DNA of 64,000 nt, taken from Psammoneis japonica. Its lineage: Eukaryota. A program made the position numbers and the translations under genes. Positions 1 through 49,719 of this stretch are shown here, piece after piece. The notes under the pieces were generated by a model. The model was not told the origin of the DNA. It did not search any database and worked only from the letters and a program-made list of their open reading frames with translations. The stretch is from contig QPGO01000183.1 in NCBI GenBank assembly GCA_008632985.1, positions 1 to 64,000 of the forward strand, read 5' to 3'. Numbering within the stretch: the first letter of the stretch is position 1; each line of letters begins with the position of its first letter.

Positions 1-244
1 GATCACTGTCGACGCGCAAAACTCTGTGCAGTTCTGCATGTTCCTTCACACGTGCCCACACTGTTCCGCCAAAACCGTGCAGTGTCAGTGCACGTTGGTG
101 AAGAGCCGCATGGACGCGTGATGCATGGGGAGGAGTGCAACATGCAGCTGCCAATGAGAGCCAATGTGTCACGGCGACGTGTTGCAGCCTTTAAATGTCA
201 CAAAGGGTGTGACAAAAACAACCTTTTGTCTGCATGCATGCTGC

Positions 245-2860: not shown

Positions 2861-3291
2861 TCCCTGTGTGTGTGCTGGGCGCTGAAAAAGAAGATGTGTT
2901 GCGACTTTGTCGTTGTGAAAATTGTGAGCCAGTTTAGAGCAGAGAAAATGGGATCGTGCGAATGGGGAATCTTGCCAAATCCCCATTCGTTCGCATTTGG
3001 ATCGCATCAAATCGATCGTGCGCTCGCACTGTGGATCGTGCGAATCAAGCCATCACGCACCATGCACGAGTGATGTCATCGTGTGGAATCACGCTGCCAT
3101 TGTGGGCCAGACGACGAGCCAGTGTGCTTTGCACGGATGCTCTCTCAGCATCCTTCTGGAATTGCCCAAGACCTGGAGCCACGCCCTCCTGTGGTCGTGC
3201 TTCCCAGGTGCGTGTCAACAATGCTGCGTTGCCACGCACAAGAGGCTCATGCACGGTCTCGCCTGGTTGTCCAGCAGCGAGGCACACTGCA
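2861..3291 (-). repeat. gypsy 3' LTR
   Basis: Aligns with 7251-7686; starts TG on the minus strand right after the PPT. Its distal end appears a few bases short. Confidence 0.9.
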
Positions 3292-3299
3292 CACTCCCC

Positions 3300-4980
3300 C
3301 ATGATCAGGGCTGTCAAGTGACAGGATGTCTTGCTGGTGACAGGGTGCAATCTGCTGCAGATTGTGCACATCTGTCAGCGCTCCGTTCTGGACACGCAAC
3401 GCGCCATTGTCATGTGCACGGACAACTCTGGCGGGTCCTTCACAGCTGTCAGAACCGCATTTAGAGGATTGTTCCTGTTTGACAAGCACCAACAGCCCTG
3501 CGTCACATTGATGCTCCTTGCGTTTCTGATTTTCACGCTTGTTGTTTAAGTTGACAAGCTTCTGCTTTCTGGTTTCCATGCACTTCCACTTGGCACGATG
3601 GGCAACAGATGAAACCACATCGCGTCCGAAGACCAATTGCATGGGACTTGCATGCGTGGTCGCAGGCCCCATGCACCGCAGCTCTGGTGTCGAAGGCCAC
3701 TGCGGAGAGGATGCCACTCCATGGGTCATCTTCGTCCAGCTCCATGTCCTGCACTGAAAAGGAACGTACCATGTTACCAAGTGTCTGGTGCACACGTTCC
3801 ACTGTGGCATTCGCCTGTGGATTCCGTTCACTTGTGGGTTTCTTCAAAATCCCACAGTCATTTTTAATCATCTGGCTAAATTCTGCCATAAATTCTGTCC
3901 CACGGTCACAAACCACCTGGGTTGGCCACGGACATCTGCACAGCCACGTTTGTTCCACGACGTTTGCTGCGATGTCTGCGCGTTTCGTAGACACTTCTTC
4001 AATCTCGAACCACCCGGTTGCTGGGTCAATCATTGTGACTGCCCACAATTGCAAAGTGTCCTTTCCGCGTCTTTGAATTTTGTGTGGCCCCATCATGTCC
4101 ATGCATGGAGTCTCCCATGGAATTATCTCTGCGATCTTTTCTGGCAGCTTCCCATGATGCTGCGTTCGGCGTTTTGTCTTCTGGCATCGATCGCTCTCAA
4201 TGCACGTAGAATGCACCGTAGACCTCATGCCAGGCCAGCAGAAGTGCTGGGCAATGGACATTTCCGCACGTGTCTCACCTGGATGACACAGTGTCTCGTG
4301 GTGCCATTCAGTTGGCGGAACCTGCAATGACTGTGGTGCTGCGATTTTGTCTTTATGACAGATCAACTGTCGTGATGACCCTCCCCCACGATGTGCGCGA
4401 ATGGAGCAGTCAGACGAGTCCTTGGCTCGTGAGAGCAGGCGCTTGTCCTTTTGTTGTGCCTTTTGAATGCGCTTGAAGCTAATGGGCAGAGATGCCTCAT
4501 CTTGCGCATCTGCATTAAATGCTTCATGCAAAGGACGACTCGATGGAGTGTCTTTTGCATCCGGATTGGCCTCGGAAGGCAAGCTGGGTGCCAGCCGAAG
4601 GCAACTAAGAGCGTCAGCGACTGGGTTGTGGGTGCCCTTAACATGGCGTAATTCGGGACCGCATTCTTTGCATGTCAACCGCCAGCGCATGACGCGCTCG
4701 GTGTTGAACACTTTGCACGTAAGATTTTTATGATCAGTGTGCACAATTGTGCGATGACCAAGGAGAATCGTTCGAAATTCTTTCAACGTCTCCACAATGG
4801 CGAGCAATTCTCTCTCCGTTGTTGCACAATTTAATTGCGCACTGTTGAGCTTTCTGCTGTAAAAGGCGATGGGTTTATCATCTTGGGATGTGGCTGCTCC
4901 CAATTGACATTTAGAGGCATTGGCATGTATCTCAAAGGGTTCATTAAAATCAGGATGTGATGACAAAACATCATCCGACA
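3300..4980 (-). pseudogene. pol: gypsy pol RNase H + integrase, frameshifted near the 3' end, Tyr-depleted
   Basis: Motifs FYSRKLNSAQ..TERELLAIVETLKEFR, TDHKNL, NPVADALS, HHETLCHPG, IDPATGW, CDRGTEF, NPQANATVERVH. The C-terminal SPMQLVFGRD is in another frame. Confidence 0.92.
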
Positions 4981-4999
4981 TGGTTGGGGTTGGGGTTTG
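4981..4999 (-). repeat. 19-bp telomere-like insertion in gypsy pol
   Basis: Minus strand CAAACCCCAACCCCAACCA; removing it restores the in-frame reading ETVKRV-M-SDDVL. Confidence 0.7.
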
Positions 5000-5335
5000 T
5001 CACCCGTTTGACGGTTTCGAACGCCTCGTCTTCAACGGATGTCCACTCCCACTTGACGGTCTCACTTGCGAGTCGTGTTGGCGGAGCCAAGACTTCAGAA
5101 CGTCTAATCCACGTGTCACGGTGGCAGTTCACCATGCCAATGAATGAGCGCAGGTCGCGTTTGTTGGTTGGGGTCGCGATTCGCTTAATGGCGTCGACTT
5201 CATTGGGTGTTGGTGGCATTCCGTCTCTGTTGACCAGATGACCCAAGTGTTCTAATTGGGTTTGACAGAAATGAGATTTAGTTGCGTTAACTTTTAGTCC
5301 TGCTTTCTGGACCCTCAATGAAACTTCTTCAAGTT
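5000..5335 (-). pseudogene. pol: gypsy RT C-terminal remnant; the RT core is deleted
   Basis: KAGLKVNATKSHF..LEHLGH, LRSFIGMVN, RRSEVLAP, WEWT. Upstream it joins directly to EPHHAR, with no YxDD region present. Confidence 0.85.
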
Positions 5336-7191
5336 TGACGAGCGTGGTGTGGTTCTACACCCTCCTTGAGTTGGACATGGCAGGGTTCTCCCTTCCATTC
5401 TCCTGACATCCCATCAAATGAGGACTCATGGCGTTTCAACAGTGCCAAAAGGTCGTTTTGTTGAACTGCAGAAAGTCCCAATGCCCCTCGCGTTGTGTCC
5501 TTGAGGCAGGCCGGCGCGTGCTTGGCGTCTGAAATGCACGAAATCCGGTCGGTTTCCAAAGACAAGGCTTCTGGATCTTGAAGATAGAAGGAGGTTTCTA
5601 CCGTAGCATCTGCGTGCCTCATTGGCACTTCTCCATTGACTGATGGCCACTCCATCATCTGTTCAGAGAAGACAACATCAATGCCTTGTGTCTCCAGAAT
5701 GTCACGTCCAACAATCACATCGTGCTTGCCCAACTTTCCATTGTGCGCGTGGACGGCATGTTTAAGTTCTGCAGTTTCGGACAATTCTGGCAACCGAAAT
5801 TTAACGGTGCAGTCGTCAGACGCACTGAACGAGCCTGCTGCCGTGGTCCAGTTTGTCTCAGCCGTTGAATGGCTTCGCAGACGTATGCAGCATCGACTGT
5901 CGAGTGGAGTGCTGCTGGCGCCACTGTCCAGCAGTGCCTTGATGGTTTGAGTCTTGCCCTTGCCATGTTCAGTGTTCACAGCTGCAAACAAGATTGGAGT
6001 GAGATGAGTCTTTTTAACTCGTTTGCGGGATTGGCCCACAACACGTGTACAATGGCAATTCAGTTGTTCATTTGTGCATTCATCCAATGTGTTGAAACTG
6101 CCTGCATCGTGTCGGCAAGTGTCCGAATCTTCGGAATCACTTGGGTTGAGGTCGCGGAAGTGATTGAGCTCCTCCTCGCGTGCCTTGCGCTTTTTCTGAG
6201 CGTTGGCAAAGAACTCCTCGACCTTCGATCCGATGAGAGCATTGATGTCTTCCTCATTCCGAGGTTTTGCATTGGGCTTGCTGCCTCCGTCATTGGAATG
6301 TCCAGTCTTGACACGTTTCACGTGGTGCTTGAGCTGACGGCAATCCTCCGTATGATGTCCACAGTTAGTCCCGTGCAGCACACACGACTTCTGGGTGTTC
6401 CGTTGGGTCGTGATCAACGACTCAGGATTGTCCGTTCTATGTCCCCGCTCACGTGGAACCTTGGTGTGTTGGTCCAGGTTACCTTCGGCAAGCTCGACCT
6501 GCTCGATGCGCTTGCAGAACTGTGCAAATTCGGCGATGGCATGCGCCAACGGGTCAAAATTCTGTAGCGTCATGAACTTCTGCCATGCGTTCGGCACACC
6601 GCACTCGAACATGTCGCACAGTTCATCATTGGGTGGTGGTGCCGGTGCTTCTCCATCCTCCATCACGGGTGGAAACTGAGAGACATGGCCGTTAATTTCA
6701 ACAGCCCTCGCGACGTGGTCACGAGCAGAAACCTCTGCGGGCTTGCGCATGAAGCGCCTCAGATGACGCTTCTGCAACAGCACCGCCCCATGTGGGAAGA
6801 TACTTTCCTTTAGCTTCGCGACGCATGCTGCGTACGTAGCGTTGGTTTGAGATGCCTGCTTGTCAGCGGCATCATTGAATGACGTCAGAGCATCGCCCTG
6901 TAGCAGGTCACGCACAAGGGCAAATTTCGCTGGCCCGGTCGTCATGTTTTGTCCTTCGTGCACGCGATCCACGTTGCGCAGAAAGATTGGGAGTGTCTCG
7001 CATGTAGCCACAGAAAGGTGCGGGATGCCCATCTCGTGCATTGGACCATCCGGATCAGCAGGGTTGTTACGTAGCTTGAACGTCTGGCACTCGCCCTGCT
7101 GCAGCTCTTTCTTCTCCGGCCGTGCGAACGGAATCGGCGGCTTGATCCGCTTCTTCATGGTCGTTTTGAGATTTGTCGGTCCCACCAACAT
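5329..7191 (-). pseudogene. gag: gypsy gag + aspartic protease + start of RT
   Basis: 620-aa ORF with Zn-knuckle-like CVLHG..GHHTEDC, protease LLDSGAS and IVGRD; only 2 Tyr. Confidence 0.88.
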
Positions 7192-7250
7192 TTCGTAGTT
7201 TCGTTTCTGTAGATTTCGTCACCTCGCACAACATGCGGGAGCAACATTGC

Positions 7251-7686: not shown

Positions 7687-9877
7687 CCCTGGAGAAAGCA
7701 ACAAAAGTCAACAATGGGCCATTGGCTCAGAATGCCCAGCCAAATTTCAGGTCAAAACCACTTGCGGGGCTGCGAGGAAGGTGAGGGAGCCATTTTCTTG
7801 CATGCCAACCTGAGGCGTGCATCCGTTGTTGGTCAACAGGCCAGATCTGAAGCCGCGCGCCCTGGAAAAAGCAGCAACAGTCAACAACGGGCCATTGGCT
7901 CAGCTTGCCCAGCCAAATTTCAGGTCAAAACCACTTGCAGGACTGTTGGGAGGGTGAGGGGGTGATTTGTTTGCATGTCGACCTCAGGCATGCAGCCATT
8001 GTGGGTCAACAGGCCAGATCTGAAGCTGCGCACCCTGGAAAAAGCAACAAAAGTCAACAACGGGCCATTGGCTCAGCTTGCCCAGCCAAATTTCAGGTCA
8101 AAACCACTTGCAGGACTGTTGGGAAGGTGAGGGGGTGATTTGTTTGCATGTCGACCTCAAGCATGCAGCCATTGTGGGTCAACAGGTCAGATCTGAAGCC
8201 GCGCGCCCTGGAAAAAGCAACAAAAGTCAACAACGGGCCATTGGCTCAGCTTGCCCAGCCAAATTTCAGGTCAAAACCACTTGCAGGACTGTTGGGAAGG
8301 TGAGGGGGTGATTTGTTTGCATGTCGACCTCAGGCGTGCAGCCATTGTGGGTCAACAGGCCAGATCTGAAGCTGCGCGCCCTGGAGAAAGCAACAAAAGT
8401 CAACAATGGGCCATTGGCTCAGCATGCCCAGCCAAATTTCAGGTCAAAACCACTTGCAGGACTGTTGGGAAGGTGAGGGGGTGATTTGTTTGCATGTCGA
8501 CCTCAGCATGCAGCCATTGTGGNNNNNNNNNNNNNNNNNNNNNNNNNNNNNNNNNNNNNNNNNNNNNNNNNNNNNNNNNNNNNNNNNNNNNNNNNNNNNN
8601 NNNNNNNNNNNNNNNNNNNNNNNNNNNNNNNNNNNNNNNNNNNNNNNNNNNNNNNNNNNNNNNNNNNNNNNNNNNNNNNNNNNNNNNNNNNNNNNNNNNN
8701 NNNNNNNNNNNNNNNNNNNNNNNNNNNNNNNNNNNNNNNNNNNNNNNNNNNNNNNNNNNNNNNNNNNNNNNNNNNNNNNNNNNNNNNNNNNNNNNNNNNN
8801 NNNNNNNNNNNNNNNNNNNNNNNNNNNNNNNNNNNNNNNNNNNNNNNNNNNNNNNNNNAAAGCAACAAAAGTCAACAACGGGCCATTGGCTCAGCTTTCC
8901 AGCCAAATTTCAGCTCGAAACCACTTGCAGGACTGTTGGGAAGGTGAGGGGGTGATTTGCATGCATGTCGACCTCAGGCATGCAGCCATTGTGGGTCAAA
9001 AGGCCAGATCTGCAGCCGCGCGCCCTGGAGAAAGCAACAAAAGTAAACAACGGGCCATTGGCTCAGCTGGCCCAGCCAAACCTCATGTCAAAACCACTTG
9101 CAGGACTGCTGGGAGGGTGAGGGGGTGATTTGTTTGCATGTCGACATTCAGGCATGCAGCCGTTGTGGGTCAACAGGTCAGATCTGAAGCCACGCGCCCT
9201 GGAAAAAACAACAAAAGTCAACAACGGGCCATTGGCTCAGCTTGCCCAGCCAAATCACAGGTCAAAACCACTTGCAGGACTGTTGGGAAGGTGAGAGAGT
9301 GATTTTCTTGTGCGCCAACCTGAGGCGTGCATCTGCCATTGGTCAACAGGCCAGATCTGAAGCCGCGCACCCTGGAAAAAGCAGCAAAAGTCAACAACGG
9401 GCCATTGGCTCAGCATGCCCAGCCAAATTTCAGGTCAAAACCACTTGCAGGACTGTTGGGAAGGTGAGGGGGTGATTTGTTTGCATGTCGACCTCAAGCA
9501 TGCAGCCATTGTGGGTCAACAGGTCAGATCTGAAGCCGCGCGCTCTGGAAAAAGCAACAAAAGTTAACAACGGGCCATTGGCTCAGCTTGCCCAGCCAAA
9601 TTTCATGTCAAAACCACTCGCAGGACTGTTGGGAGGGTGAGGGGGTGATTTGTTTGCATGTCGACCTCAGGCATGCAGCCACTGGTGGTCAACAGGCAAG
9701 ATCTGAAGCCGCGCACCCTGGAAAAAGCAACAAAAGTCAACAACGGGCCATTGGCTCAGCTTGCCCAGCCAAACTTCAGGTCAAAACCACTTGTGGGACT
9801 GTTGGGAAGGTGAGGCAGTGATTTTCTTGCATGCCAACCTCAGGCACACAGCCATTGTCATGGGTCAACAGGCCACA
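7687..9877 (+). repeat. 173-bp satellite array, right segment, spanning the assembly gap
   Basis: The same monomer resumes in register after the TSD; equivalent ORF starts at 7905/8078/8251. Confidence 0.96.
8523..8858. other. assembly gap (336 N) inside the satellite
   Basis: Run of N with satellite on both sides, so the true array length is unknown. Confidence 1.
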
Positions 9878-10227
9878 CAGGAAATGGGAACCCCCCAAGA
9901 TGATGATCATCATGAGGGACCCTTTTGTCAGGCCATGCCGGCTCTCCCCACATCCTTCCACCACATCTTGCAGAGGGGTTGTTTCTCAACTTGAGGGTTT
10001 TCCATTGCAGCTGCAACATCTCGGGGTGTCTCCATGTCGGTGCACCACCCTTGACCAGTTGTCCCGTGACATCACAATGCAATGTCCAACATTCTTTGTC
10101 CGTGTGATGTCAACCTCATGTTGTGACATCAGATTGCATCCTCATGACAGAATGACGTCACAACATGATGTCAGTTTTCTGCCTCCGCAATGAACTGATC
10201 TAGCTCGACCAGGTGACTGTGCTGGTT

Positions 10228-10413
10228 TGAACAAATGCTGACACACTGTCATGGACACAGGCAGTGTAAGTGCTGTTGGCAATTGGTCCACTCTGTTGCT
10301 CAATTGGTGGCCCCGGTGGCACAACATCTCACAATTCTAGAACCTGTTGATGCTGTTCAACACTCTGTCTTGTCTTGCACCCAATTCTCAGCTGTCATGG
10401 CAGCATTTGTTCA
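10228..10413 (+). repeat. copia 5' LTR
   Basis: Aligns with 16109-16292. Confidence 0.92.
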
Positions 10414-10426
10414 CTTTGTCAGAGCC
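10414..10426 (+). promoter_or_regulatory. probable primer-binding site (initiator tRNA-Met type), mutated
   Basis: CTTTGTCAGAGCC directly after the 5' LTR resembles the common copia PBS TGGTATCAGAGCC, with TA->TG. Confidence 0.55.
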
Positions 10427-10879
10427 AACGCACCATGATGTTCATCGCCTGGAATGGGCATCGCGAACGGTGCGACGGCATCATTGCGATCAATCGATTT
10501 TTGCGGCAAGCGCCATGTTGGTCCCATGGTTGCTCGCGCAATCGCTGAGTCCTTTGCATGTGTCAACATTCATGGATGTGAACGACATGCTCTTGGAGAC
10601 CAGAGCTGTGATCCGTCAGACATGACGTTGGCACACGAAATGTTTGATCACGTGGATGGAACATGTTGGCTAAGACATGCAAACATTCGTGACAAAGACA
10701 ACATGATGATTTGTGCATTGAGGTCTGTCATTTGATCACACACATTTCATTGGTCAAAATGCGTTGTCAAATTGTTCAGACACTGTGCATGTGGACACAT
10801 GTCTGTTGGACATCATTGCTTGGGGGTGACACCGAAACGAGAACCACACATTTTTCTCACTTTCCTCCACTCACACAAG

Positions 10880-12340
10880 TGGATGCTCATGCGTCGAAAC
10901 GCGAACAACCATTGACACACCATGGCCACTGCTGCAGCCTTTACCGCCTGTCTTGCGCATTGTGGATGCAATGCACAGACGCGTGCCTGCACAGCCCACC
11001 AAGGCTTTGCTGTGATCGAGGACCTGGAACAGGTCCCTTTGACAGAAATTGCCGACATGACTGAGGGTGTTATGAAGAGCGTGGATGCCGCCACCAACCC
11101 CCAAGTCCACTTTCCACACCTGGCGAATCGCAAGCTCAAGGCACTGCGCGCATGGATTGACTGCCGCAGAGCTCGGAATCAAGAGCCGACCGCTGCTCTC
11201 TTCGCTGGCGACGTCATTGGAACGTGGACGGCACGTCTGACGGAACTGGAGCAATTCAAGTCCGCCGACTTGGACGACGAATCGGCTGCCAAAATGGCCG
11301 TGGAGCTCAAGAACCTGTACGACTGGCCCACCTTCCAAGAGCTGCTGGAGGCCGAGCTGCGTCACCACCACAGTGCCGTCACCGGAGTGCCCCTCATCCA
11401 CCCAATTCGGGAACATGAAGATGTCACCGCCGAGATGTTGGCTGCCACCCACACTGCCATTGACGAGGACCTTGTTGCCACTGCCCGCCTTGCAGGAGCT
11501 CAGCATGCAGGACAGGCAACGACTGCATGATCTCTTGAAGAAGCCAGTGATGGGGGGGCCCGGATGGGCTTTTGTCAAACCTTCCAATCGCAATCGCGAT
11601 GGTCGCACTGCCTTCTTCACACTTGAGAGGCAGGCAGAGGGATCGGCTGCCGCCACCACCAGGAAGAACCGTGCTTGCGCACAGATTGCTGCCGCGAAGT
11701 GCACCGGACGGGGTCGATTTACCTTTGACCAGTGCATTCAGCGTCATCAAATGGCTCACAATGACTTGTCTGAGCTGGACAAACCGGCAGCCGAGACCAA
11801 GAAGGTCTCTGACTTTCTGAAGGGTGTCTCCGACCCCAGGTTGGAAACTGGCAAGAGCACAGTGGATGGAGACCCAAGAAGCTAGCGGATTTCGAGGCAT
11901 GCCAGCAGTGTGTGAAAACTCTGGTCGAGAATGCCAAGAACCGCAACGCTGACACTCGCGGGATTGCATCCGTCCAATGCCGCAACAATCGGCGTGCCAA
12001 CCCTGGTGGGAAGCACCAACCTAAGAAGGACAAGCCCAGGATCCGGGCAGGCCATTGTCCCATTGAAGAGTGGAGTGCTCTTGACGGTCCCGAACGAGAG
12101 CAAGTCCAAAAGCTCCGCGATGCCAAGAAGGCCAAAAAAAAGTGCAAAGCTGCTGCTGCGTCCTCGGAGGCTGAGTCGGTCAATGCTGAAACTCGCGCTG
12201 TGAAGAAAGCAGCCATTGCCGAGCCCACTGCTCAACCTGCTGATGCACCAAAAGACTCCAAAGAGCCTGGTGAACCTGCCGCCAATGCAGGCACCCAGTT
12301 CGGTCGCAGTGCGCATGAGAAACCTCAGAAGGAGGACTGA
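10880..12340 (+). pseudogene. gag: copia gag, broken by frameshifts
   Basis: Consecutive ORF pieces (10922-11530, ~11520-11885, 11912-12340) with CoDi-gag-like motifs GVPLIHPIR, RDGRTAF, KKVSDFLKGVSDPRL. Confidence 0.75.
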
Positions 12341-12403
12341 ACAGTTGCGCCAGCACCAAAAGGCACAGAACCGAATGTTGCTAAACCTGCTGGCACCATT
12401 TGT

Positions 12404-15400
12404 TTGTCTGGGCGATTCTCAAAGGACACACGTGTCTCTTTGTCATCTGCTGGAAATTCAGATGACGAAGCCACCACTGATTTGGACTCGCACGCTGACA
12501 CGTGTGCTGTTGGGTCCAATTTTGTGATGTGCTCTGACATCGACAGAACTGTCGTGGTGCACCCCTGCTCCGAAGAGCATGCACCAATGGAAAACATTCC
12601 TATTTGCACGGCTGCCACCGTGTGGGTTGATCCAACTGATGGACAACCACACCTGCTGCCAGTCCACGAGGCTGTGTTTTTTGGGGACAAGATGACTGAC
12701 ACCCTCCTGTGCCCCAACCAACTGCGAGCGAATGGGCTGACCGTCCAAGACACCCCTCGCCAGTTTGATCGGACTGGCACACACTCTGTTTCTTTTCCTG
12801 ACTCGAAGATCAGGATGCCATTGCGAATGCGAGGCGTTGCTTCAGTCTTTGATTCACACAAGCCAACAAAGGAGGATCTGGAGAACCTCCCCCGGCTGGA
12901 ACTCACATCACCCCTGAGATGGGAGCCTTCTGCTGATGCCCTGGCGCAAAAGGAGGAAGCGCATGAATGTGCCAGTGTGCGCCAAGGATCAGCAAAGTCG
13001 GGCGGACGGTCGACGATGATGAATGTCGGATGGCACGCCAGAAATGGCAGAAGGCCAGACCAAGGAGATCTGCAAGGAATGCAGGATGCACCAGGAGGTG
13101 TCCACCCCACACAGCCCCTGGCAGAACCTGGCCGAGGCATCCATTCGTGAGTTGAAGAAAAGAGTCCGTGTGACTCTACGCCGGACTGGCGCTCACAGGC
13201 GACTTTGGTCCCACAGCGCCAAATGGATGTGTGACATCCGACGCATGATTGCAACTGGCACATCGGACATGGGAGGACGAGTCCCAGAAGAGGAGGTGAC
13301 AGGTTCGACACCCGACATCTCTTCCCTCTCTCTCTTTGATTGGCATCAACCTGTTTGTAGCTGCATGCCTGTGGCGGAGTTCCCACAAGAAAAGAAGTGC
13401 ATTGGCCGTTGGCTCGGAGTGGCTGACAACTGCACTGACGATGTGGCATTCATCATTTTGCCCGAATCAGGCAAACCCATCATTCGGAAGGATGTGTGGG
13501 CCATGCCGGAGGATGACCTTAAAACTCCGGCGATCCAGACGGATCTTGCATCAGTCGATCAAGCTTTGATTGAGCGGCTTGGCATCCCGGAAAAGGACAC
13601 CAGTGCTGACTTCCCTGAACTCCCTGACGACTTCATGGACGAATGGGACGATGCCATTGAACCGTGGAACCCGACGCTTCCAAACCGGAAGCTGATGAGC
13701 ACACCCCGGAAGGGCCAGATGAATGTCTCACAGCTCAAGTCATGTTGCCACGAGGAGGCGAGCTGACTCATGCTAGGGTCATTGCACGCAAGCGAGATGG
13801 CGACGGGGTTCCTGTTGGCACTAGGAACGACAACCCTGTCCTGGACTTGAGGATGTACGACGTGGAGTTCCCTGATGGATCCACTGATTCCTGCACTGCC
13901 AACGTAATTGCAGAGAACCTGTTCGCTCAGATCGACTCTGAAGGGAATGCCTGCCAGATCATGAAGGAAATGGTCGATCACCGATGTGATGCCCATGCCA
14001 CAACGGCCGATGACGGGTGCACAACGACTAAGACTGGCAGGCGTGCTCCCAGGAGGACGACTGCAGGCTGGGACCTGCAAGTCGAATGGAAGGATGGGAC
14101 TGCATCATGGGTTCCTCTCAAGGATTTGAAGGAGTCCAATCCAGTCGAGGTTGCTGAGTGCGCTGCAGCAAACAAAGCTGCCAGTGAACCAGCCTTCAAC
14201 TGGTGGGTCCGAGACGTCTTGCATCGCAGGTCAAGGATCCTGAAGAAAGTCAAGTCGCGTCACTGGAAACACACGCATGAGTTCGGAATTGAACTCCCGA
14301 AATCTGTCAAGGAAGCCATGGAGATGGACAACAGAACGGGGACCGACTTCTGGTTCAAAGCCATCGAGAAGGAAATGCGCAACGTCATGCCTGCGTTCGA
14401 ATTCCGCGATGACGACACTGTGCCGGTCGGGTGCAAACACATTGACTGTCATGTGATCTTCGACATTAAGAGCACCCTCCAACGTAAAGCGAGGTTCATG
14501 GCCAGAGGCCATCAAACCGATCCACCCAAGGAATCGACATGTTCCAGCGTGGTGTCGCGTGACAGCGTTAGGGTGGCATTCAGTGTGGCAGCCCTGAATG
14601 ACCTGGAGGTCCTGAGCGCTGACGTTCAGAATGCCTGTTTGAATGCACACACTAAGGAAAAGTGTTGCACCACTGCTGGCCTGGAATTTGGGAAGCAGAA
14701 CAAAGGAAGGCCGGTGATCATTGTCCGTGCCTTGCATGGTCTCAAGTCTTCAGGTGCAAGATTTAGGGAACACCTGGCAGCTGCTCTGCGTGACGCTGGG
14801 TTTGAGTCTTGCAAAGATGGCCCGGACATCTGGATGCAAGCTGCGGTTAAGCCGGATGGCTTCAGGCACTGGGAATGTGTGCTTGTCTGTGTGGACGACT
14901 TGTTGTGCGTCTCCCATGAACCTCAGAAGGTCATGGACCACATGAGCTCCAGGCACACGCTCAAGGACGGAAGCATCTGCGAGCCGGAAGAGTGCTTGGG
15001 CGCCCAGATTAGAAAGCACCAGCTGTCTGACTCGGATGGTGAGACACGCTGGGACATGTCCTCTGACCTTCATGTCAAAAGGGCATTAGCTGACGTTGAA
15101 TTGGAGCTTAAGAAAACTGACAGGCGTCTTCCGACGAAGGCGTCGACACCCTTGAGCTCGGGACATGGGCCTGAACTGGACGGTTCACCTGAGTTGAACG
15201 CCAAAACGGCTGACTGCTGTCAAGGCCTTGTCGGTGTGCTGCGGTGGGTGGTTGAACTGGGGCGAGTGGACATTTTTGTCACTGTCTCGCTCATGTCCTC
15301 CTGCTTGGTGGCACCACGAGTTGGACACCTGGACGAGGTGCTCCATGTCTTTGCATGCTTGAAGGCTCATTCTAAGTCTGCACCAGTGTTTGACAACACT

Positions 15401-15904
15401 GAGCCCATCTTTGACGAGAGTCGCTTCACCAAGTGTGATTGGGAAGAACATCACCCTGGCGCGGCTGAACCAATGCCGCCAAACATGCCGGAGGCACGCG
15501 GGAATGGCGTGACTGCCACTTGCTTTGTCGATGCTGATCACGCCGGATGCCGTGTGATGCGCAGGTCCCACACTGGGATCCTGATCTTCATCCAACGAGC
15601 ACCCATCTTGCATTGCTCTAAGCGGCAGAATGCTGTAGAGTCCTCCACTTTTGCGTCGGAGTTTGTGGCCATGAAGACTGCAGTGGAGCAAATTGAAGCC
15701 TTGTGTTGCAAGCTTCGGATGCTCGGAATCCCCATGGATGGGGCCACTGACGTTTTCTGTGACAATGAAGCTGTCTTCAAGAACTCAACTAAACCAGAGT
15801 CCACTTTGAAGAAGAAGCACAATGCAATTGCCTGTCACAGGACTCGTGAGGCACAAGCCGCTGGAACAGCGCGCATTGCTTGGGAAGACGGACGCACCAA
15901 CTGA
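12404..15904 (+). pseudogene. pol: copia pol (PR, partial IN, RT, RNase H), frameshifted and Tyr-depleted
   Basis: LDSHADTC (PR), PHSPWQNLAE (IN), RKARF, DVQNACL, ALHGLKSSG, CVDDLL (RT), FVDADHAG, CDNEAV, KKKHNAIACH (RNase H). Confidence 0.93.
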
Positions 15905-16108
15905 GTTGTTGCCTGGACCAAAGCTCCGGGAAATCACAAGTCACATCCTGTGGCAAGTCCCAAAAGGGGACAAACTGAACGGGTTTGCCGCGCAGGTGCG
16001 GCTTTTTCCCACCCCCAAAACACAACTGCTGCCCTGGAACAGGGCAGCATCAGGTTGCATTTGTCTGTCGATCTGACCCGAGTGGAGCTAGTGTCAGTTC
16101 GAGGGGAC

Positions 16109-16292
16109 TGAACAAATGCTGATGTGCTGTCATGGATGTAGGCAGTTTAAGTGCCAAAGGCGATTGGTCCACTGTCGCTCAATTGGTGGCCCCGGTGGCA
16201 TGACATCTCACAACTCTAGAACCTGTTGATGCTGTTCAACACTCTGTCTTGTCTCACACCCAATTCTCAGCCATCATGGTGGCATTTATTCA
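16109..16292 (+). repeat. copia 3' LTR
   Basis: Follows the PPT; ends ATTTATTCA. Confidence 0.92.
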
Positions 16293-16601
16293 GGTTTCCC
16301 TTGGGACTCAAACCCCCATTTCCCGGGTTTGAATCTGTCATTGCGCAAGTCACATGCGTGCATTTTCTCACAAGCAGAGACAGTGGAGAGAAATGGCTCC
16401 ACTGTTTTGCCATCCAGCAACAACTGCCGTGCTGCATTTTTGATCGAGCACTGCAACAACTGCTCCTTTGCCCCGGGCACCACACGGCCGATGGTCGCTG
16501 TCGAACAAGCTGCTTTTGTTCATGCAAACAACAAACAAACATTCAACCATCACCACTGCTGTGTGAAATCAGGACTGTTCATCCTGTCTTTTTCCCTGGC
16601 G

Positions 16602-17080
16602 TCACTCTTTCTGCAAGTTTTCGTCACCGCAAGGAATGCAGCATGCCGCTGGTCTCCGTTCATTTTTGCCACATTCAGTCTTGCACTCTTTGCACTTCAA
16701 ACCAAAAAGCTCCCACAACGTGTCACACAAACGGAGCTGCAACAGCAGGGTGTGATCATGTTCCTTGCAAGTTGCGTGGCTTTTCAGGTGTTGCTTTTCC
16801 TTGCATCCGCAACAACTGAAGCACAGGAGCTGATCATCACCCGTCCTGGAAGAGCATGTCTCGTGCAAAATTTGTCCACATTTGTTGCAAGGCACTCCGT
16901 TGCTTGCCCGTTCCCCGCACAGGTGGCATTCCAACTCCTCTGTTTCATCTGACAAAACCATGTTTGCCTTTTTGTCTTCCACTCTTTTCCAACAAGCTTT
17001 CGCCAATTCCTCATTGATGTTTTCCTCCGGTTCCCATGACTTTTCTCTGGTCAACCAAAGGACGTGGCATGTCCGATCAC
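16602..17080 (-). pseudogene. decayed chromodomain + PHD-finger-like gene fragment
   Basis: RTCHVLWLTREKSWEPEENI resembles the chromo motif Y.V.W...sWEP.eNl, followed by CHLC..CNKC..HETC..CFSC (C4HC3 spacing). Confidence 0.55.
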
Positions 17081-17910
17081 AATGTCAGCTTCCAAACGCA
17101 CACTGCGATTTCAAATGCACCCACCTGTGTTTCCTGCCATTGCAGCATCTGTCCTTGACGTGGTTGTGTTTTCCTCTGTTGAAGTGTCTGCCCTTGATGT
17201 GTTTGTAAGATCAAGGCTGACAACTGACACCTGTGTCTGATGAAATGAATTCGTCATTGTGTTTTCGACTTTTGATCGCTTTTTGTGCTTGGACACAATT
17301 GCAAAGTCACGGTTGCATGTTCTCATTGCACAGTTTTTGAATTGCATTTAGTTTCATTCTTTTCTGTGTTTTTCATTGTTTCAATCAAGCATCAATGTTC
17401 TCAAATGAACATTGACAACCATGTCGACCTGTTGTGTTAAGAACATTGTTCTTTCCTCCCATTTGAAACAAAATTTTCCTCAAATGAAAATTGGGTTTTC
17501 ATTGGTTCACTTTTGAATGTGTGATTTTCCACAATTGAAATTTGAGTTTTCATGTGTGTTCTTTTTTAAAGTGCTTGCTTCATCTACGTTGTTGAATGAA
17601 ATGCATTGTGCAATCACACAATTGGGTGGGAGGACGTGCGCGTGCGCGTGCTGCTCTTTCAGCGTGTGGAACATGCATGGGGCCCTGCATGCAGGGCTTG
17701 TCTGCAAATGTGCAGTGCAGCAGAATGCACGTGTTTTGCGCTTTCGGCGATTGAGAGCACATTTGCTGCTCCACCTCATTTTCACAAATCCTCTGCGCTG
17801 TGCAAGCCCCCTTTTGTCCATCAACAGAACTGCGATCCCTCCCCCTTTTTCCATCCAATCATCTTTTGGGCCTCTTCTTGAATCTTGCATCTTGCTCTTT
17901 TGCGCATTGA

Positions 17911-18800
17911 ATGATCCCAAACGACACCATGGATGACATGGCAAACAATTGGGGGTGCAGTTTGGTTGCCGTTAGCCCGCGTGGCTTAAAATGCAATGGC
18001 GAAGAATTGATGAATTCTTCCATGGACATCAGCCATCACAAGCAGTTAGAAGAAGTTGTTTTTCGTCACTTTGATGGCGAATTCCTGCTGTACAAAGTGA
18101 CACCAAACGGCTCCGATGCAAATCTGTTTGCAGTTAATTCTGTGACGGGAGGGCACAACGACGGATGTTTGATTGCATGTGGAAGTCATGTGGCCAGTGA
18201 TCATGGGCCGGTCCACTGTTGGACTGCCAGCACGTTCAGTGCAGAACATGGTCCCAGCACGGCAATGCATCCGGACAACGTGTTTAACTCTTTTACATGC
18301 AATCACACCATTGCGCTGCCGCATCACATGCCAGGCACTCTGAGCTCCGCGGAGCTCAGTGAGTGCAAAAACGATTGTCTCAACCACATTCATCTCCGTT
18401 GTTTGATGCAGGCTGTAAAGAAGGTGCCAACCACTGCATTGTTTTTAGAATTGATGCCAGCAAACAATGGCGCAACACTCAGCGACGATTTTCTAGAATC
18501 TCTCGGTCGGTTGGCTGACCACCATTCCTTTGAGATTGTTGTTGACGAAATTGTGACGGGCGGATGCAGTGGATGCATGCTGTCATGCATGGCTGAACCC
18601 AAGCATTTTGTTGATGCTGTTGCCTGTGTTGCCATGGGCAAATGGCTGCATGCTGGCACAGTTTTGGCAAAACCCAATCATTGCAATTGGTCCTGCAGCA
18701 TGACATCATCTCTTCCCAATCGTGGTGCCTCCACGGGCATGGATTGTAAAGAAATTGTCATGACATGGAAGACTGCAACTTCACAGTTCCATCTCACAGC
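17911..18800 (+). pseudogene. decayed class-III PLP aminotransferase-like sequence
   Basis: ALFLELM...LGRLADHHSFEIVVDEIVTGG.SG...AMGKW matches the class-III pattern (DE..TG.GR.G ... GK). One Tyr in the ORF; it runs into repeat sequence at ~18810. Confidence 0.55.
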
Positions 18801-19258
18801 CAAGCATTTGTGGCCCTCTTTCCCACTTCCTTGTCCCCTTTTCCCACTCCCTTCTTGGCTTCACTTTCCCTTTAGCCTTTGTTTTTGCCCTTTGCCCGCT
18901 GCCAACTGCCCGAACCCCAACCCCTTGTCAGTGTTGCAAAACATTCGATTTTGGACAAATCTGTGCTTTTGGTGGCAAAATTTTGTTCGCAAGTGAGAGA
19001 CCGAGCAAAATTTGAGCAAATGTTCATTTTTTGCACAATTTGGGTCATGCGCAGCTGGAACACGTCCCTTGGCTATTTTCCACCTTTTGTGATTTCTGCC
19101 ATTTTGCACCCTCGGGCATTTTGTGCTTTCTGAATGATTTTGTGCCTCTGGCCATTTTGTGCCCATGTTGCACCCTCAGCCATTTTGCACCCTTTGTCAC
19201 AAGCAGATGTGCTCCAGCTCCATGTGGGACCTTGTGCTGCTGGGCTGTGGCGCAATCA

Positions 19259-19700
19259 TCCAAAGCTGGCACGCCAACTTTAGATCCAAAGTCGGCATGC
19301 CAATTTTGTGCAAAGTTGGCATGCCGACTTTTGACCCAAAGTTGGCATGCCGACTTTTGACCCAAAGTTGGCATGCCGACTTTTGACCCAAAGTTGGCAT
19401 GCCGACTTTTGACCCAAAGTTGGCATGCCGACTTTTTGCCCAAAGTTGGCATGCCAAGTTTTGACCCAAAGTCAACATGCTGAGTTTTGCTCCAAAGTTG
19501 GCATGCCAAGTTTTGACCCAAAGTTGGCATGCCGACTTTTGACCCAAAGTTGGCATGCCGACTTTTGACCCAAAGTTGGCAGGCCGACTTTTGACCCAAA
19601 GTTGGCAGGCCGACTTTTGGCCCAAACGTGGCACGCCGACTTTTGACCCAAAGTTGGCACACCAAGTTTTGTGCAAAATGCCAAGTTTTGATCCAAAGTT
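19259..19700. repeat. 26-bp palindromic minisatellite, array 1
   Basis: Unit GACCCAAAGTTGGCATGCCGACTTTT; core AAAGTYGGCATGCCRACTTT is self-complementary. Confidence 0.95.
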
Positions 19701-19714
19701 TGCACACCACATCA

Positions 19715-20088
19715 GATGCATTCCAGATGTGGGTGGGAACTCTTTTGACATTGGGCCCGCAGAATTTGGCGGTGATTAAAACACCAATGATTGTCAACAG
19801 AAAATCAGGCAATTTTGCCAGTGCACAAACTCGCCCATGATTGAAGCACATCATTTTTTGCTTGGCCAGTTGCATTCTTCAGACATTGAAGAATGTGGCT
19901 GGCGCGCTGTTGTCACTCTGAATCTGTTGCATGAAACATCTGGGGCTTTGCAAAACAGCGAGTTTGGACAATTTTTTTTTGAATGTCACTCACAGAAAGG
20001 CACGTGCAAAACATGCGACGGATGACAAAAATTGTTTGTGTCACAGGCCAGTGCCACGAGCTCCCACCTGGGGCTGCTGGAGCACGTC
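19715..20088. mobile_element. MITE, GACG..TCCAG TIR family, TSD ATCA
   Basis: ATCA|GATGCATTCCAG...CTGGAGCACGTC|ATCA; also present in the duplicated units at 26450-26819 and 35446-35774. Confidence 0.8.
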
Positions 20089-20260
20089 ATCATGAAGCAG
20101 ACTCCACCTTCCCACCATTTTTTCAATTGATCCACTCAACATGACCCAGCAAGATGAGCATCCAAAGACCAAAGACACCCCAAAAACAAAACATCAAGAA
20201 AGCAAAGAATGGTTGCCAGCGGTGCTCTGCACTTCTGGGTGTTCTGCGTTTGTGCTTGCA

Positions 20261-20680
20261 GATGCGCTCCAGCTCTGGGTGGGACCTCGCACTGCTGAGC
20301 TGTGTCATTGACAGTTTTTTGGATCACACCGCATGTCACGCACGCAGAAAGGTGCGCGGCTTTTGTGAAATTTTGTGTCATTTTGTGGCACACTTGCTCA
20401 AGCAGATTGGCTTTTGTGGGCGTGCAGAGCACGGACATTTGAGCGACTCTTGACATTTTTTTCTTCTGCGCCATTCACAAATGTCTTGAGAATGGCGCAG
20501 GGCAGGTGCATTTGCAAAAACGTCAAGTGGCGATGGCCACAATTGTGCCAAAAACTTGGCCGTTTGTTTGATGTTGAAGACAAAATTGTCCATCAACTGG
20601 ATTCTTGCAATGCGGAGCTCGCACGCAGAATTCTGCGGGCCCAATGTCACAAAAAGTCCCACCTGGGACTGGAGCCTATC
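20261..20680. mobile_element. MITE, same TIR family, TSD TGCA
   Basis: TGCA|GATGCGCTCCAG...CTGGAGCCTATC|TGCA; duplicated at 26995-27386 and 35947-36335. Confidence 0.8.
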
Positions 20681-20684
20681 TGCA

Positions 20685-21080
20685 GACACGTTCCAGCCCT
20701 AGGTGGGAGCTCGCAGTGCTGACGTGTGACAACAACAATTTTTGTCATCCGTCGCATGTTTCGTGCGTAGATTTCTGCGTGTGACATTTAAAAAAAATTG
20801 TCCAGACTCGCTGTTTTGCGAAACCCCAGATGTTTTATGTGACAAATTTGTGGAAACAACAATGCGCCAGTTGCATTCTTCAATGTCTGAAGAACGCAAC
20901 TGGCCAAGTAAAAAATGATTTACTTCAATCATGTGCGAGTTTGTGCATTCGCAAAATTGCCTCATTTTCTGTTGGCGATCATTGACATTTTAATTGCCGT
21001 GTGATTTTACTGTGGAGCTCGCACGCAGAAGTCTACGGGCCCAATGTCACACGGATTCCCACCTGCGTCTGGAACGCGTC
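20685..21080. mobile_element. second MITE inserted in tandem at the same TGCA site
   Basis: TGCA|GACACGTTCCAG...CTGGAACGCGTC|TGCA; absent from copies 2 and 3 of the unit; an inverted relative of 19715-20088. Confidence 0.8.
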
Positions 21081-21589
21081 TGCATCAGAATTTAGATGCC
21101 GTCACCGTCATTGGCACCTCACAAGCAAAAATGGCGCGGGTGGCCCTTTGTTGCTTTTTGCCATTGCATCAAACACAAAACCTTGCTCAGATTGTGGCGT
21201 GATCTTGGCAGGATTCTCTGCCATGCTGCTTCAATGAGCATTTGACCACCTCTTTTGCAGCGCAGCTTTTTCACAAAATGCAACAACAACCATGTGAGGG
21301 CAGCTGCAATGACAACTCAAGTCACAAGGACAGCACAACTGCTGCCACTGCCACCACCATTGCCAACAGCTCAGGGGATGTCCAGCAAAACATTCAACGC
21401 TGTGCCGCACACTGTTGCGCCATGCACGGTCACAGACGTCAACACAAAATTTGGCAAGGTGCTCCCGGCTCATGATCTGCCAGGGAGAGGTTGCAAGATC
21501 AAAGACAGCTCCCAAAAGTCAGCTGACAATGACGCTGCAGCCAAAAAGTCCGCTGATGATGACACTGCAGAAAACACAGTGTGGACATT

Positions 21590-23135
21590 TGAACAATTTT
21601 TTGTGGGGCATCAAAGTCCTCATGGGACACGCATCATAAACTCCCTCAGCAGACTCAGCGCTGATTGTGCGTCAGCACATTTCACACTGAGATTTCTTTG
21701 CAGGTGGCGAACCTGCCAAGCAGCATCGCAGAAAGACATGCTCAATTGGCGGCAACAATTTCACCGAAAATCATCTGTTGTGTTGCGACTCGTTTGTCAC
21801 AATGAAAAACATTGATGGCGCAACAACAATGATTTTGCAACACTCACACGAGTCTTGTCAGTGTTGCAAAACATTCGAGTTTGAACAAACCTGTGCTTTT
21901 GGTGGTGAAAAACCGTTCGCAAGTCAGAGACTGCACAAAAATCATGCAAATGTCATTTTTGTGCATGATTTGGGTCACGTGCGGCTGGAACACGTCAGCA
22001 GTGACACCAACAAGAAGAAGCAACAGAGACCACTCTGTGGGTTTGTGCCTTGCACACTCACTTTGTTCTTGGTGGGCCTTGCTGGTGCTGTCACAAAAGG
22101 AGCTGCACACCATCGGTGGAGGACAAAACACATGCAAAGCTTGTCTGCCATGAAATTGTCAGGCTTTTTGGCCCTTTCTTGGTTTCAAAAGACAAGGCAA
22201 GGGCACCCCAAAAACAAAATTCTTTTCACATTGGACGTGGCCAACGTGTTGGTCAATTTCATTTTGGGGCAATCGGAGGAGTCTTGAGGGCTCAGACACA
22301 CAAGCATGCCAGATTGGCGGCCAAGGGATGTTTTGTGCCCCTTTTTGGAAGGAGGCAACAAACAATGGGTCGCAGTTGCACAATCACACAATCTCAGATT
22401 TTGGTCTCAAATCTTGTTGTGCCATGGACTGCATGCAACAAACCTGTGTCAACACCAAATGGGTCTGTTGTTGATTGTGATGTGTGCAAATGCCTGCAAG
22501 GCATGCCACCTGATGTTCTGTCACTTGACAACTTCTCAGTGCAGATCCAGCCCTGCAGAGCAGAATCCATCAAAACTCCCTCCGAACTCTGGAGTGTTGC
22601 AAAACTTGCAGGTTCCGCAGAAACAATTTGTCCTGCCCAAAGCACACGCAAAAAGCATCACAAAATTCGAGTGTGGCCGCTGGTGGGATCTCCTTTTCAA
22701 GACAATCTTGAAGCTGTGCAAGTCATTTCCTTGACCCCAACCTTCCTTCCGGCATTGCTTGACAGCTTCTGCACTCATTGTCTGCCTTCAAACTGTTGTT
22801 GGGCTCTGCTGTTGCTCTCCTGTCCATCGACTGGAGAAAAAATCTCATCATTTTTGTGAGGGCTGTCAGTGAACAGGGGGACATGTTTCATTGATTTGGG
22901 GGTGTTTCGTGGGTGTCTGTCCATCAGTCCAAACTTGCGAGCAGAATCGACATGTCTGCGTGCCTGTGTTGCAGGGTCTGTCCATTGACTGGAGAAAAAA
23001 TCTCATCATTTTTGCATTGTCTGTCTGTCAACAGGAGAGATGTTTCATCGATTCAGGGGTTTGTCTGTCAACCCTCAGGGAAAAACAACACCTCATGACC
23101 CAACCCCAATCCCTCCCATCTCACACTCCCTCAAT
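21590..23135 (+). repeat. segment duplicated at ~29055-32150, where it carries three extra MITE insertions
   Basis: Near-identical text (e.g. 22041 ff vs 30094 ff); supplies the empty sites for the MITEs at 30579 and 31480. Confidence 0.88.
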
Positions 23136-23550
23136 GCAGTCAAATGCAGGCCTCGCTGATCCAATTGGCAGCGTGCAGGGCACACATCTGGTGTTTGTTG
23201 TTTTGCGCGTTGCTTTTGCCCGATTGCAATGTTCGCGAATGCAAACAACAAAATTTGCTCCAACTGGCCGCAAATGTGGTGTTTGTTGTTTTCACAAATA
23301 AAATCCTGAAGAGACATGCAGACACGTTGGACATTTGACTGCATGGGTTGCTGACATCAAATTTTCAAGACGACGCGCAGAAAGACAGCACGATGCATCA
23401 AGAAAGACACACATGACGTCAATGATGACGCAAGTTCAACAAACACCTTGTGTTCGAACAAAAGTTGCAAAAAATGGGTTCGTCACAAATCTTCACCGAC
23501 AATGTCTGATGGACAAGCAATCGCAGCAACAACAAATGCCAAACACTGGA

Positions 23551-23947
23551 GACGTGCTCCAGCTCCAGGTGGGACCTCGCACCACTGAGCTGCGACATCA
23601 ACAGTTTTTTGGATCGCGTCGCATGTCGCGCACGTAGATGGCTGCGTGTGATGTTCTACGAAATTGTTTCATGCTTCCTGTTTTGCGAAGCCAAAGGCTT
23701 TCTATTTTCAACATTTGTGACAATGAAAATGGGCTGGGTGTGTTCTTCAATGTCTGCAGAGTGTGCCCACAGCAACCATTGTTCATGTGCTCAAAGTGTG
23801 AAGGAGGAGACACATTCGTAAAATTGCCTCTTTTTCTGTTGGCGATCATTCACATTTTCATTGCTTGACAAATTTGCTGTGGAGCTCGCACGCAGGATTC
23901 TGCGGGCCCAATGTCACACTGAGTCCCGCCTGGGATTGGAACCCGTC
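23551..23947. mobile_element. MITE, same TIR family, TSD TGGA
   Basis: TGGA|GACGTGCTCCAG...TTGGAACCCGTC|TGGA. Confidence 0.8.
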
Positions 23948-24008
23948 TGGATCGGCAACCCCTGCATGTGTGGGCACACACATGTAAAAACATTCATGTG
24001 CAACAGGT

Positions 24009-27000: not shown

Positions 27001-27643
27001 TTCCAGCTCCAGGTGGGACCTCGCACTGCCGAACTGTGATGTTTGACAGTTTTTTGGATCACACTGTGTGTCACGCACGCAGAAAGGTGCGCAACTTTTG
27101 TGAAATTTTGTGTCATTTTGTGGCACACTTGTTGAGCAATCTGTCCAACAACTTTTGACATTTTTTTCTTCTGCGCCATTCACAAATGTCTTGAGAATGG
27201 CGCAGGGCAGGCGCACTTGCAAAAACGTCAAGTGGCAATGGTCATGATTGCACCACAAACTTGGTCGTTCATTTGATGTTGAAGATGAAATTGTCTGTCA
27301 ATTGAACTCTTGCAATGCGGAGCTCGCGCACAGAATTCTGCGGGCCCAATGTCACAAAAAGTCCCCGCCCAGAACTGGAGCCCGTCTGCATCAGAATTTG
27401 GGTGCCGTCACCGTCGTTGGCACCTCACAAGCAAAAATGGTGCAGGTGGCCCTTTGTTGCTTTTTGCCATTGCATCAAACACAAAACCTTGCTCAAATTG
27501 TGGCCTGATCTTGGCAGGATTCTCTGCCGTGCTGCTTCAGCGAGCATTTGATCACCTCTTTTGCTGCATGGCTTTTTCACAAAATGCAACAACAACCATG
27601 TGAGGGCAGCTGCAATGACAACTCAAGTCACAAGGACAGCACA
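24009..27643 (+). repeat. segmental duplication, partner ~33211-36595
   Basis: Colinear from CATGCACATCCCATGCCGTGTG onward; contains an internal tandem duplication (~24745-25100 / ~25237-25590). Confidence 0.9.
25936..26435. repeat. 26-bp palindromic minisatellite, array 2
   Basis: Same unit as 19259-19700. Confidence 0.95.
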
Positions 27644-36628: not shown

Positions 36629-36629
36629 C

Positions 36630-49615: not shown

Positions 49616-49719
49616 AAATTCAGGCTTAATTAAATGTGACGGTCATGTCAATGACCAAACTCGCTAGACCAACTGATCGGATTTGAGACACTGACTAAGA
49701 GGTTCTGTCACAGTGTCAC

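Follow-up and report, generated by a model that had tools for sequence, protein, structure and literature searches.

Why are most of the few TA dinucleotides left in a retrotransposon found in one kind of flank? The question is raised by the interior (10414..16108, + strand) of a copia-type long terminal repeat (LTR) retrotransposon of the diatom Psammoneis japonica. The element lies in a stretch of 64,000 nucleotides of contig QPGO01000183.1 (assembly GCA_008632985.1, positions 1 to 64,000 of the forward strand), hereafter the window, and its remaining TA sites are mainly YTAR (Y, pyrimidine; R, purine). The YTAR excess is most probably the footprint of a sequence-reading mutator that turns TA into TG or CA within the repeats of this diatom and spares the adjacent genes.

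Surviving TA sites and the loss of tyrosine codons

A listing of every site in the copia interior gave 31 TA: 20 YTAR (CTAA 8, CTAG 4, TTAA 4, TTAG 4), five YTAY, four RTAR and two RTAY, both of them GTAC. None of the 31 is preceded by A. The preliminary description had offered these figures as an approximate hand tally (~31 TA; ~20 YTAR, ~9 YTAY or RTAR, ~2 RTAY, no ATA), and they proved exact. At least 20 YTAR among 31 would arise by chance with a probability of 9e-9 if their share were that of the host genes in the window (98/556), 6e-10 if it were that of 80 relatives of the copia pol region (954/6291), and 1.6e-4 under the first-order Markov expectation of the TA-depleted DNA (share 0.315). 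The similar excess described earlier for a gypsy-type fragment (2900-7250) holds but is weaker: 24 of its 57 TA are YTAR, with P = 1.4e-5 against host genes, 9e-7 against the copia relatives and a borderline 0.06 against the Markov expectation. Across the depleted DNA of the window, the Markov expectation is rejected (P = 2e-14).

The window is a mosaic of six TA-depleted blocks (48.3 kb) and three normal blocks (13.9 kb) carrying host genes. Block limits were set by 600-base sliding windows and composition was expressed as the dinucleotide odds ratio (rho); two intermediate stretches of 700 bases each (4501-5200 and 6501-7200, together 25 TA) and 400 bases around a gap of N fall outside both sets. 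Pooled over both strands, rho TA is 0.07 in depleted versus 0.57 in normal DNA, the individual blocks ranging over 0.03-0.23 and 0.55-0.67, respectively. TG/CA rises from a rho of 1.16 in normal DNA to 1.68 in depleted DNA. Among dinucleotides made only of A and T, the loss is restricted to TA: neither AA (1.32 depleted vs 1.17 normal) nor AT (0.84 vs 0.90) is lost, and GC content is 0.50 in depleted versus 0.47 in normal DNA. CG is also lowered, to a rho of 0.23-0.80 in the TA-depleted blocks (within 1-42300, 49801-53900 and 58301-62000) versus ~1.0 in the genes and normal blocks, and in-window paralogues differ by CG versus TG/CA at 714 places and by TA versus TG/CA at 114. This pattern of CpG depletion suggests cytosine methylation of the same TA-depleted repeats.

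The flank bias extends to the whole depleted fraction. Its 204 TA comprise 117 YTAR, 80 mixed (YTAY or RTAR) and 7 RTAY, versus 98, 299 and 159 of the 556 TA in normal DNA (chi-square 133, P = 1e-29). Collapsing paralogous look-alike sites left 103/74/7 of 184 versus 98/293/155 of 546 (chi-square 115).

The copia element is complete and heavily TA-depleted. It spans 10228..16292 (+), as delimited by a pair of LTRs found by self-BLAST, a 5′ LTR of 186 bases (10228..10413, +) and a 3′ LTR of 184 bases (16109..16292, +) with 86% identity. GGTT stands on either flank, the LTRs run from TG to CA and a purine tract precedes the 3′ LTR. Only 37 TA remain in its 6065 bases; sorted by the number of TAY half-sites, that is, by whether neither, one or both strands read TAY, they number 23, 12 and 2. 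The LTRs of one element are identical at insertion. Here they differ in 26 of 186 columns, 20 of which fall in pairs of YR dinucleotides: eight are TG versus CA, two TA versus TG/CA and two CG versus TG/CA. Since only three pairs bear a CG, TA must be the ancestor of most of the eight TG-versus-CA pairs. Mutation thus struck integrated DNA, on both strands, after insertion.

Conserved tyrosine codons served as witnesses of the ancestral TA, because TAY in frame encodes Tyr. We aligned the copia reverse transcriptase (RT)/RNase H frame (13661..15901, +; 747 amino acids, stop-free, Pfam RVT_2), whose named relatives are from Fragilaria crotonensis, with 30 of at least 120 homologues (55-64% identity), and called a column conserved when at least 70% of the homologues agreed. 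Of 471 such columns, 389 are unchanged, and the figure for non-Tyr columns is 388/446 (87%). The 25 conserved Tyr columns, on the other hand, now read Cys (15), His (7), Phe (2) or Tyr (1). In the copia gag, protease and integrase frames, seven conserved Tyr columns have turned into His (5), Cys (1) and Leu (1). The partly TA-depleted RNase H and integrase frame of the gypsy-type fragment (3536..4999, -; Pfam RT_RNaseH, Integrase_H2C2 and rve) adds five more, of which two are now Cys and three His. Altogether, TAY has become TGY or CAY at 33 of 37 conserved codons (22/25 in copia RT, 6/7 in gag, protease and integrase, 5/5 in gypsy). Even the active-site YVDD motif of the copia frame has become CVDD. 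Cys and His products alternate along copia (11 runs in 22 sites versus ~10.5 expected, by hand tally), so the changes fell on both strands and did not form long tracts confined to one. The loss of TA is a genuine TA-specific mutational process.

The second gypsy-type frame (5332..7218, -; gag, protease and RT, 629 amino acids) is less depleted (rho TA 0.23-0.33). It was left out of the Tyr columns, its 19 homologues being just 25-42% identical; the domains seen in its distant homologues are RVT_1, aspartic protease and rve. A codon alignment of pol with 40 relatives gave 30 sites with TA in at least half of them, nearly all Tyr codons, and added nothing further.

As the preferred motif TAY is the Tyr codon, the process wipes out tyrosines. 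It cannot make a stop from a sense codon, since the only change of TA to TG or CA that yields a stop is TAA to TGA. The 747-codon frame is kept in a dead copia element, and long frames persist on all six strands, because TAA and TAG have been removed everywhere. The elements would accordingly have been killed by missense change, Tyr to Cys or His, with long open frames remaining.

In the copia element (10341-16076), all six strands carry stop-free frames of 80-374 codons, and such frames are present in other depleted DNA too. The copia family is highly abundant in one DNA run, with 6137 contigs at least 80% alike and 945 at 99% or more; in the same run its interior has 874 variable places, and at 800 of 873 the variation is a transition.

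A flank rule for TA survival

Survival in each NTAN context was normalised to three stand-ins for the ancestor: the host DNA of the window, the 80 relatives of copia pol and the Markov expectation from depleted DNA. The 80 relatives are encoded by metagenome loci with a rho TA of 0.40-0.93; a second hypermutated copy was not found among them, although a bias against such a copy came from one of the two patterns used in the search, which demanded a Tyr. Per 2241 bases of copia pol, the relatives predict 14.7 YTAR, 31.7 YTAY, 15.3 RTAR and 35.2 RTAY, and we observed 14, 0, 3 and 1 (chi-square 54, P = 1.6e-12).

The preliminary description had proposed that the mutator prefers TAY. Uniform survival across NTAN, the pattern set against that proposal, is rejected in the window data with a chi-square of 268 against the host stand-in and 347 against the relatives (9 df). 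Instead, survival follows the number of TAY half-sites in all five sub-regions. With zero, one and two half-sites it is 0.78, 0.28 and 0.14 in gypsy, 0.54, 0.09 and 0.03 in copia, and 0.31, 0.08 and 0.003 in 16293-42300; the same ordering is seen in 49801-53900 and 58301-62000.

We fitted an additive four-parameter model that gives each strand its own rate, determined by the base immediately 3′ of the TA on that strand; it fits the ten tetramers obtained by collapsing reverse complements (chi-square 2.9 with the host baseline, 4.6 with the relatives). The cumulative rates per strand (rate × time, host baseline) are 0.40 for TAA, 0.71 for TAG, 1.71 for TAC and 2.66 for TAT, a ratio of ~1 : 1.8 : 4.3 : 6.7. 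By Poisson bootstrap, (C+T)/(A+G) is 4.0 (95% 3.0-5.5), T/C is 1.56 (1.24-1.91) and G/A is 1.8 (1.02-3.8). Fitted in each of the five sub-regions, the rate ratios range from 2.7 to 12.7 and are highest in the least saturated element. The strand-symmetrised density of trinucleotides in depleted relative to normal DNA falls in the same order: TAA 0.22, TAG 0.15, TAC 0.06 and TAT 0.02. These results show that the flanks govern the rate through a half-site rule, with a contribution from each strand that follows the base next to its TA on the 3′ side, so that RTAY is erased first and YTAR last.

The preference reaches one base further. Survival is high for TAAA (0.34-0.47) and TAGA (0.22-0.32) and low, at 0.01-0.04, for TACT, TATC, TATT and TACC, with TACT and TATC at 0.01-0.02; no TATA is left in depleted DNA. 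Among TAC contexts, survival is 0.105-0.118 for TACG, 0.076-0.108 for TACA, 0.026-0.037 for TACC and 0.016-0.021 for TACT. The data therefore support a refined version of the original claim: the TAY preference runs in graded steps, T > C > G > A at +1, and the base at +2 matters as well.

Strand, base and agent

We infer that the agent is an enzyme aimed at silenced or repeated chromatin. The likeliest candidate would be a DNA adenine deaminase that strictly needs a T on the 5′ side and prefers a pyrimidine on the 3′ side; it would turn A into inosine, which is read as G. TA is its own reverse complement, and for this reason the surviving sites cannot tell apart an A attacked before Y, a T attacked after R and a duplex RTAY recognised as such. 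The direction of change leans weakly to TAY → TGY (equivalently RTA → RCA). Dropping tandem arrays left 52 events in which a paralogue keeps the TA; among these, YTAY gave TG 10 times and CA 4 times, while RTAR gave TG twice and CA 10 times (Fisher P = 0.008). Compared with 42 full-length relatives, pol sites of the Y..Y class have 30 fewer TA, 26 more TG and 14 more CA, and those of the R..Y class have 34 fewer TA, 12 more TG and 22 more CA; the mass balance of the R..R class is inside the scatter among relatives. The 319 paralogue pairs of TG versus CA were rejected as markers of ancestral TA, because CpG decay makes their ancestor ambiguous, an ancestral CG yielding the identical pair.

The leaning towards TGY, seen in both paralogue events and pol gains, speaks against a reading in which a duplex tetranucleotide is recognised as a whole, RTAY best and YTAR worst, through DNA shape or by a symmetric dimer, and either strand is then changed at random. 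A multiplicative site model, however, gives the ten tetramers a fit close to that of the additive strand model (chi-square 6.3 and 5.1 versus 2.9 and 4.6), and conserved Tyr codons preceded by a pyrimidine became Cys and His in near-even numbers (10 and 7; after a purine, 8 and 8). We consider whole-site recognition possible but doubtful. The lesion could also fall on the T, with RTA becoming RCA through a thymine-modifying enzyme or through misdirected T:G repair in methylated repeat chromatin. Every result can be written equally well in this form, and the CpG depletion of the same blocks suggests methylated chromatin, in which T:G repair would be busy. A repair-error route would be limited by the misinsertion rate of the polymerase. 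No precedent for a T lesion was found in the literature consulted, where the authors who described TpA hypermutation in Bigelowiella natans prefer adenine deamination (Mettrop et al., 2026; 10.64898/2026.01.13.699255). An origin on the T is unlikely, in our view.

Other accounts dispense with the flank preference, with DNA as the substrate or with the enzyme. In the first, all TAs were erased and the present ones are later back-mutations (TG or CA to TA) whose own context bias yields YTAR; in its favour, just ~9% of relatives have TA at surviving pol TAs, no more than the ~6% at comparable TG/CA positions. The ancestry of these TAs thus cannot be shown by conservation in relatives. Yet the pol YTAR count matches the ancestral expectation while the other classes are near zero, and the least mutated element, gypsy (~33% survival), already shows the half-site ordering. 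Back-mutation would also need a bias that imitates the half-site rule in ten classes, and even at mutation equilibrium the level of TA in each context would still reflect the forward rate, which makes this account very improbable. Editing of the transcript by an ADAR-like or ADAT2/3 enzyme, fixed via reverse transcription, draws on the liking for U at -1 that ADAR, fungal ADAT2/3 and TadA share (PMC10027721). It is ruled out as the cause because the LTR pair diverged after integration and the non-coding satellite is depleted as well, as are unclassified non-coding repeats. Both strands are changed, with Cys and His products, and ADAR and the fungal enzymes like A or G at +1 (PMC10027721), the opposite of the present rule; we find RNA editing scarcely credible. 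The absence of any enzyme deserves less weight still. Repeats do recombine, and these are shifted from AT to GC by ~3 points of GC, as drift, GC-biased gene conversion or Pol-eta-type WA errors might allow. But WA errors comprise A>G at both AA and TA, a signature unmatched here as AA is not depleted; GC-biased gene conversion is unmatched, with AT and AA unchanged and GC content only slightly raised; and a flank rule over ten classes is not expected from gene conversion. Nor would such processes hit 33 of 37 Tyr columns and leave 87% of the other conserved copia RT columns intact. The earlier argument that a specific motif points to an enzyme rather than to drift or biased gene conversion is borne out, and Pol-eta WA errors are excluded with them, TA and CG alone being depleted.

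Several observations weigh against an adenine deaminase that reads the base 3′ of TA on each strand, in addition to the multiplicative fit and the even Tyr products just given. The paralogue events collapse to 9/12 distinct reference sites (hand tally), and the favoured sense accounts for about two thirds of changes where a 4-7-fold strand preference predicts 80-88%. The stand-ins, being neighbouring host genes and pol relatives of 48-70% protein identity, are not true ancestors, and in saturated regions some TAs may have back-mutated. TACG is not the most sensitive context, a misfit with TadA-like UACG specificity. A Pfam scan of 31 frames found no deaminase gene in the 64-kb window, and the data come from this one window.

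Related processes and other features of the window

The process would be of the same kind as the TpA hypermutation of B. natans. Two integrated viral regions gathered 231 mutations in mutation-accumulation lines of that alga. All but one were A>G or T>C, and these 230 were without exception TpA → TpG/CpA; coding sequences low in TpA showed an excess of reverse transcriptase and DDE domains. The authors liken the process to fungal repeat-induced point mutation (RIP) and propose an ADAT2-like adenine deaminase (Mettrop et al., 2026; 10.64898/2026.01.13.699255). Both cases show TpA → TpG/CpA on both strands of foreign or repeat DNA beside normal genes. Here, too, TA is the one dinucleotide lost among those made of A and T alone, with copia, gypsy and satellite DNA inside depleted blocks and normal genes next to them. 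The two differ in that B. natans is a chlorarachniophyte (Rhizaria) and P. japonica a diatom, from another eukaryotic supergroup; in that the mutations were measured de novo there, whereas only a long-term footprint is seen here; and in depth, with a rho of 0.02-0.1 here versus 0.45 in a giant-virus insert there. The words "context", "flanking", "trinucleotide" and "tetranucleotide" do not occur in the main text of the preprint, whose figures and supplements may hold flank data (10.64898/2026.01.13.699255); relative to that main text, the half-site rule is new. In full-text searches of the literature, this preprint was the only report of TA-directed hypermutation, and no report from a diatom was found.

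With fungal RIP, the process shares a transition hypermutation confined to repeats, a dinucleotide preference, skewed TpA/CpA/TpG ratios and the killing of transposons. The two run in opposite directions: RIP changes CpA to TpA, which creates stops, whereas here TpA becomes CpA or TpG and no stops can arise. Accordingly, the TpA enrichment that marks RIP is absent, TpA being depleted and CpA/TpG enriched, and the process may be viewed as a mirror image of RIP on the A side. CpG decay in methylated repeats occurs in the same blocks and gives the same products, TG and CA, but its substrate dinucleotide is CpG, not TA.

The motif was also compared with those of known adenosine deaminases, and the +1 pyrimidine would fit TadA alone. 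All 15 mRNA editing sites of E. coli TadA are UACG, and editing there recodes Tyr TAC to Cys TGC (PMC10027721). The TadA analogy drawn in the preliminary description stands in part. The strict U/T before the edited A is shared. The C that follows it in UACG finds a mixed match: TAC is lost 4.3 times as fast as TAA, but TAT is faster still (T/C 1.56, as above). The G at +2 of UACG is not favoured, TACG surviving better (0.105-0.118) than TACC and TACT (0.02-0.04); moreover, the substrate of TadA is an RNA hairpin loop. Fungal ADAT2/3 mRNA editing prefers U at -1 strongly and ADAR weakly, and both favour A or G at +1 (PMC10027721). They resemble the present process in the A-to-I chemistry, which would apply here, and in the U/T at -1. 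They differ in that purines at +1, favoured there, are protective here (TAA and TAG are the slowest contexts), and in that their target is RNA, while the changes seen here lie in both strands of integrated DNA.

We tentatively suggest that diatoms could carry a chromatin-targeted DNA adenine deaminase defence with the motif T-A-Y(-Y), shared or convergent with that of chlorarachniophytes. If so, such a defence would erase the Tyr codons and TA-rich regulatory DNA of transposons, and the half-site rule would be an enzymatic fingerprint (T required at -1, T > C > G > A at +1, pyrimidine at +2), with which candidate deaminases could be picked out by their specificity in vitro and the defence spotted in other eukaryotes from sequence. 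A graded flank rule over ten classes is hard to obtain save from a macromolecule that reads bases, which turns the YTAR excess into a testable question of enzymology. The rule distinguishes the process from ADAR and fungal ADAT2/3 mRNA editing, and its +2 preference distinguishes it from TadA too. The finding widens the range of TpA hypermutation from one chlorarachniophyte preprint to diatoms, major marine primary producers. To our knowledge, DNA adenine deaminases are so far known only from the directed evolution of TadA, and a natural one, if found, would be of interest to base editing. There is also a practical side: stop-free frames in TA-depleted repeats lead gene callers to over-predict, and Tyr-poor, Cys- and His-rich pseudo-proteins will enter databases.

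The depleted blocks differ in content. The first (1..4500, rho TA 0.08) holds a 173-base satellite and part of the gypsy-type fragment. The satellite forms three arrays (334-2860, 7684-8522 and 8859-9877) on either side of that fragment, with the gap of N at 8523-8858. It was uninformative as a source of ancestral TA: 22 full monomers, when aligned, vary mainly at CpG and show no TG/CA mixtures. The satellite is nearly free of TA, as if TA had been lost before its amplification or homogenisation. The main block (8901..42300; 33.4 kb, rho TA 0.06, CG 0.47, TG and CA ~1.7) contains satellite, copia and unclassified repeats, and 52% of it has a paralogue in the window. Three copies of one unclassified repeat family enclose a 26-base tandem repeat (19260-19659, 25937-26439 and 35138-35435) whose unit is nearly palindromic. 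Within the same block, 17911-18993 (+), also TA-depleted, gives a weak match to class-III aminotransferases (E = 1.3e-4, under the curated cut-off); it is perhaps a piece of a host gene, captured or duplicated and then hypermutated. Two further depleted blocks, 49801..53900 (rho TA 0.03, 7 TA) and 58301..62000 (rho TA 0.07, 17 TA), are flanked by normal genes, and neither has a Pfam match or a paralogue within the window.

Normal host DNA, the source of the baseline, occupies 42301..49800 (rho TA 0.55, CG 1.02), 53901..58300 and 62001..64000 (rho TA 0.67). The second of these blocks carries an aldehyde dehydrogenase exon and a gene for an LCIB/theta carbonic anhydrase (54273-55475). The named relatives of the latter among the matches listed are all diatoms: Odontella (68% identity) and a Bacillariaceae metagenome-assembled genome (70%), then Amphora, Chaetoceros, Thalassiosira and Coscinodiscus. 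In the first block, an open frame of 1469 codons (44547-48953, -) has normal composition and no Pfam family; a Cys-rich module is repeated three to four times within it, together with a Pro/Thr-rich linker. Near the aldehyde dehydrogenase exon, an inverted pair of ~200 bases (57179-57385 and 63196-63398), 80% identical, lies in DNA of normal composition.

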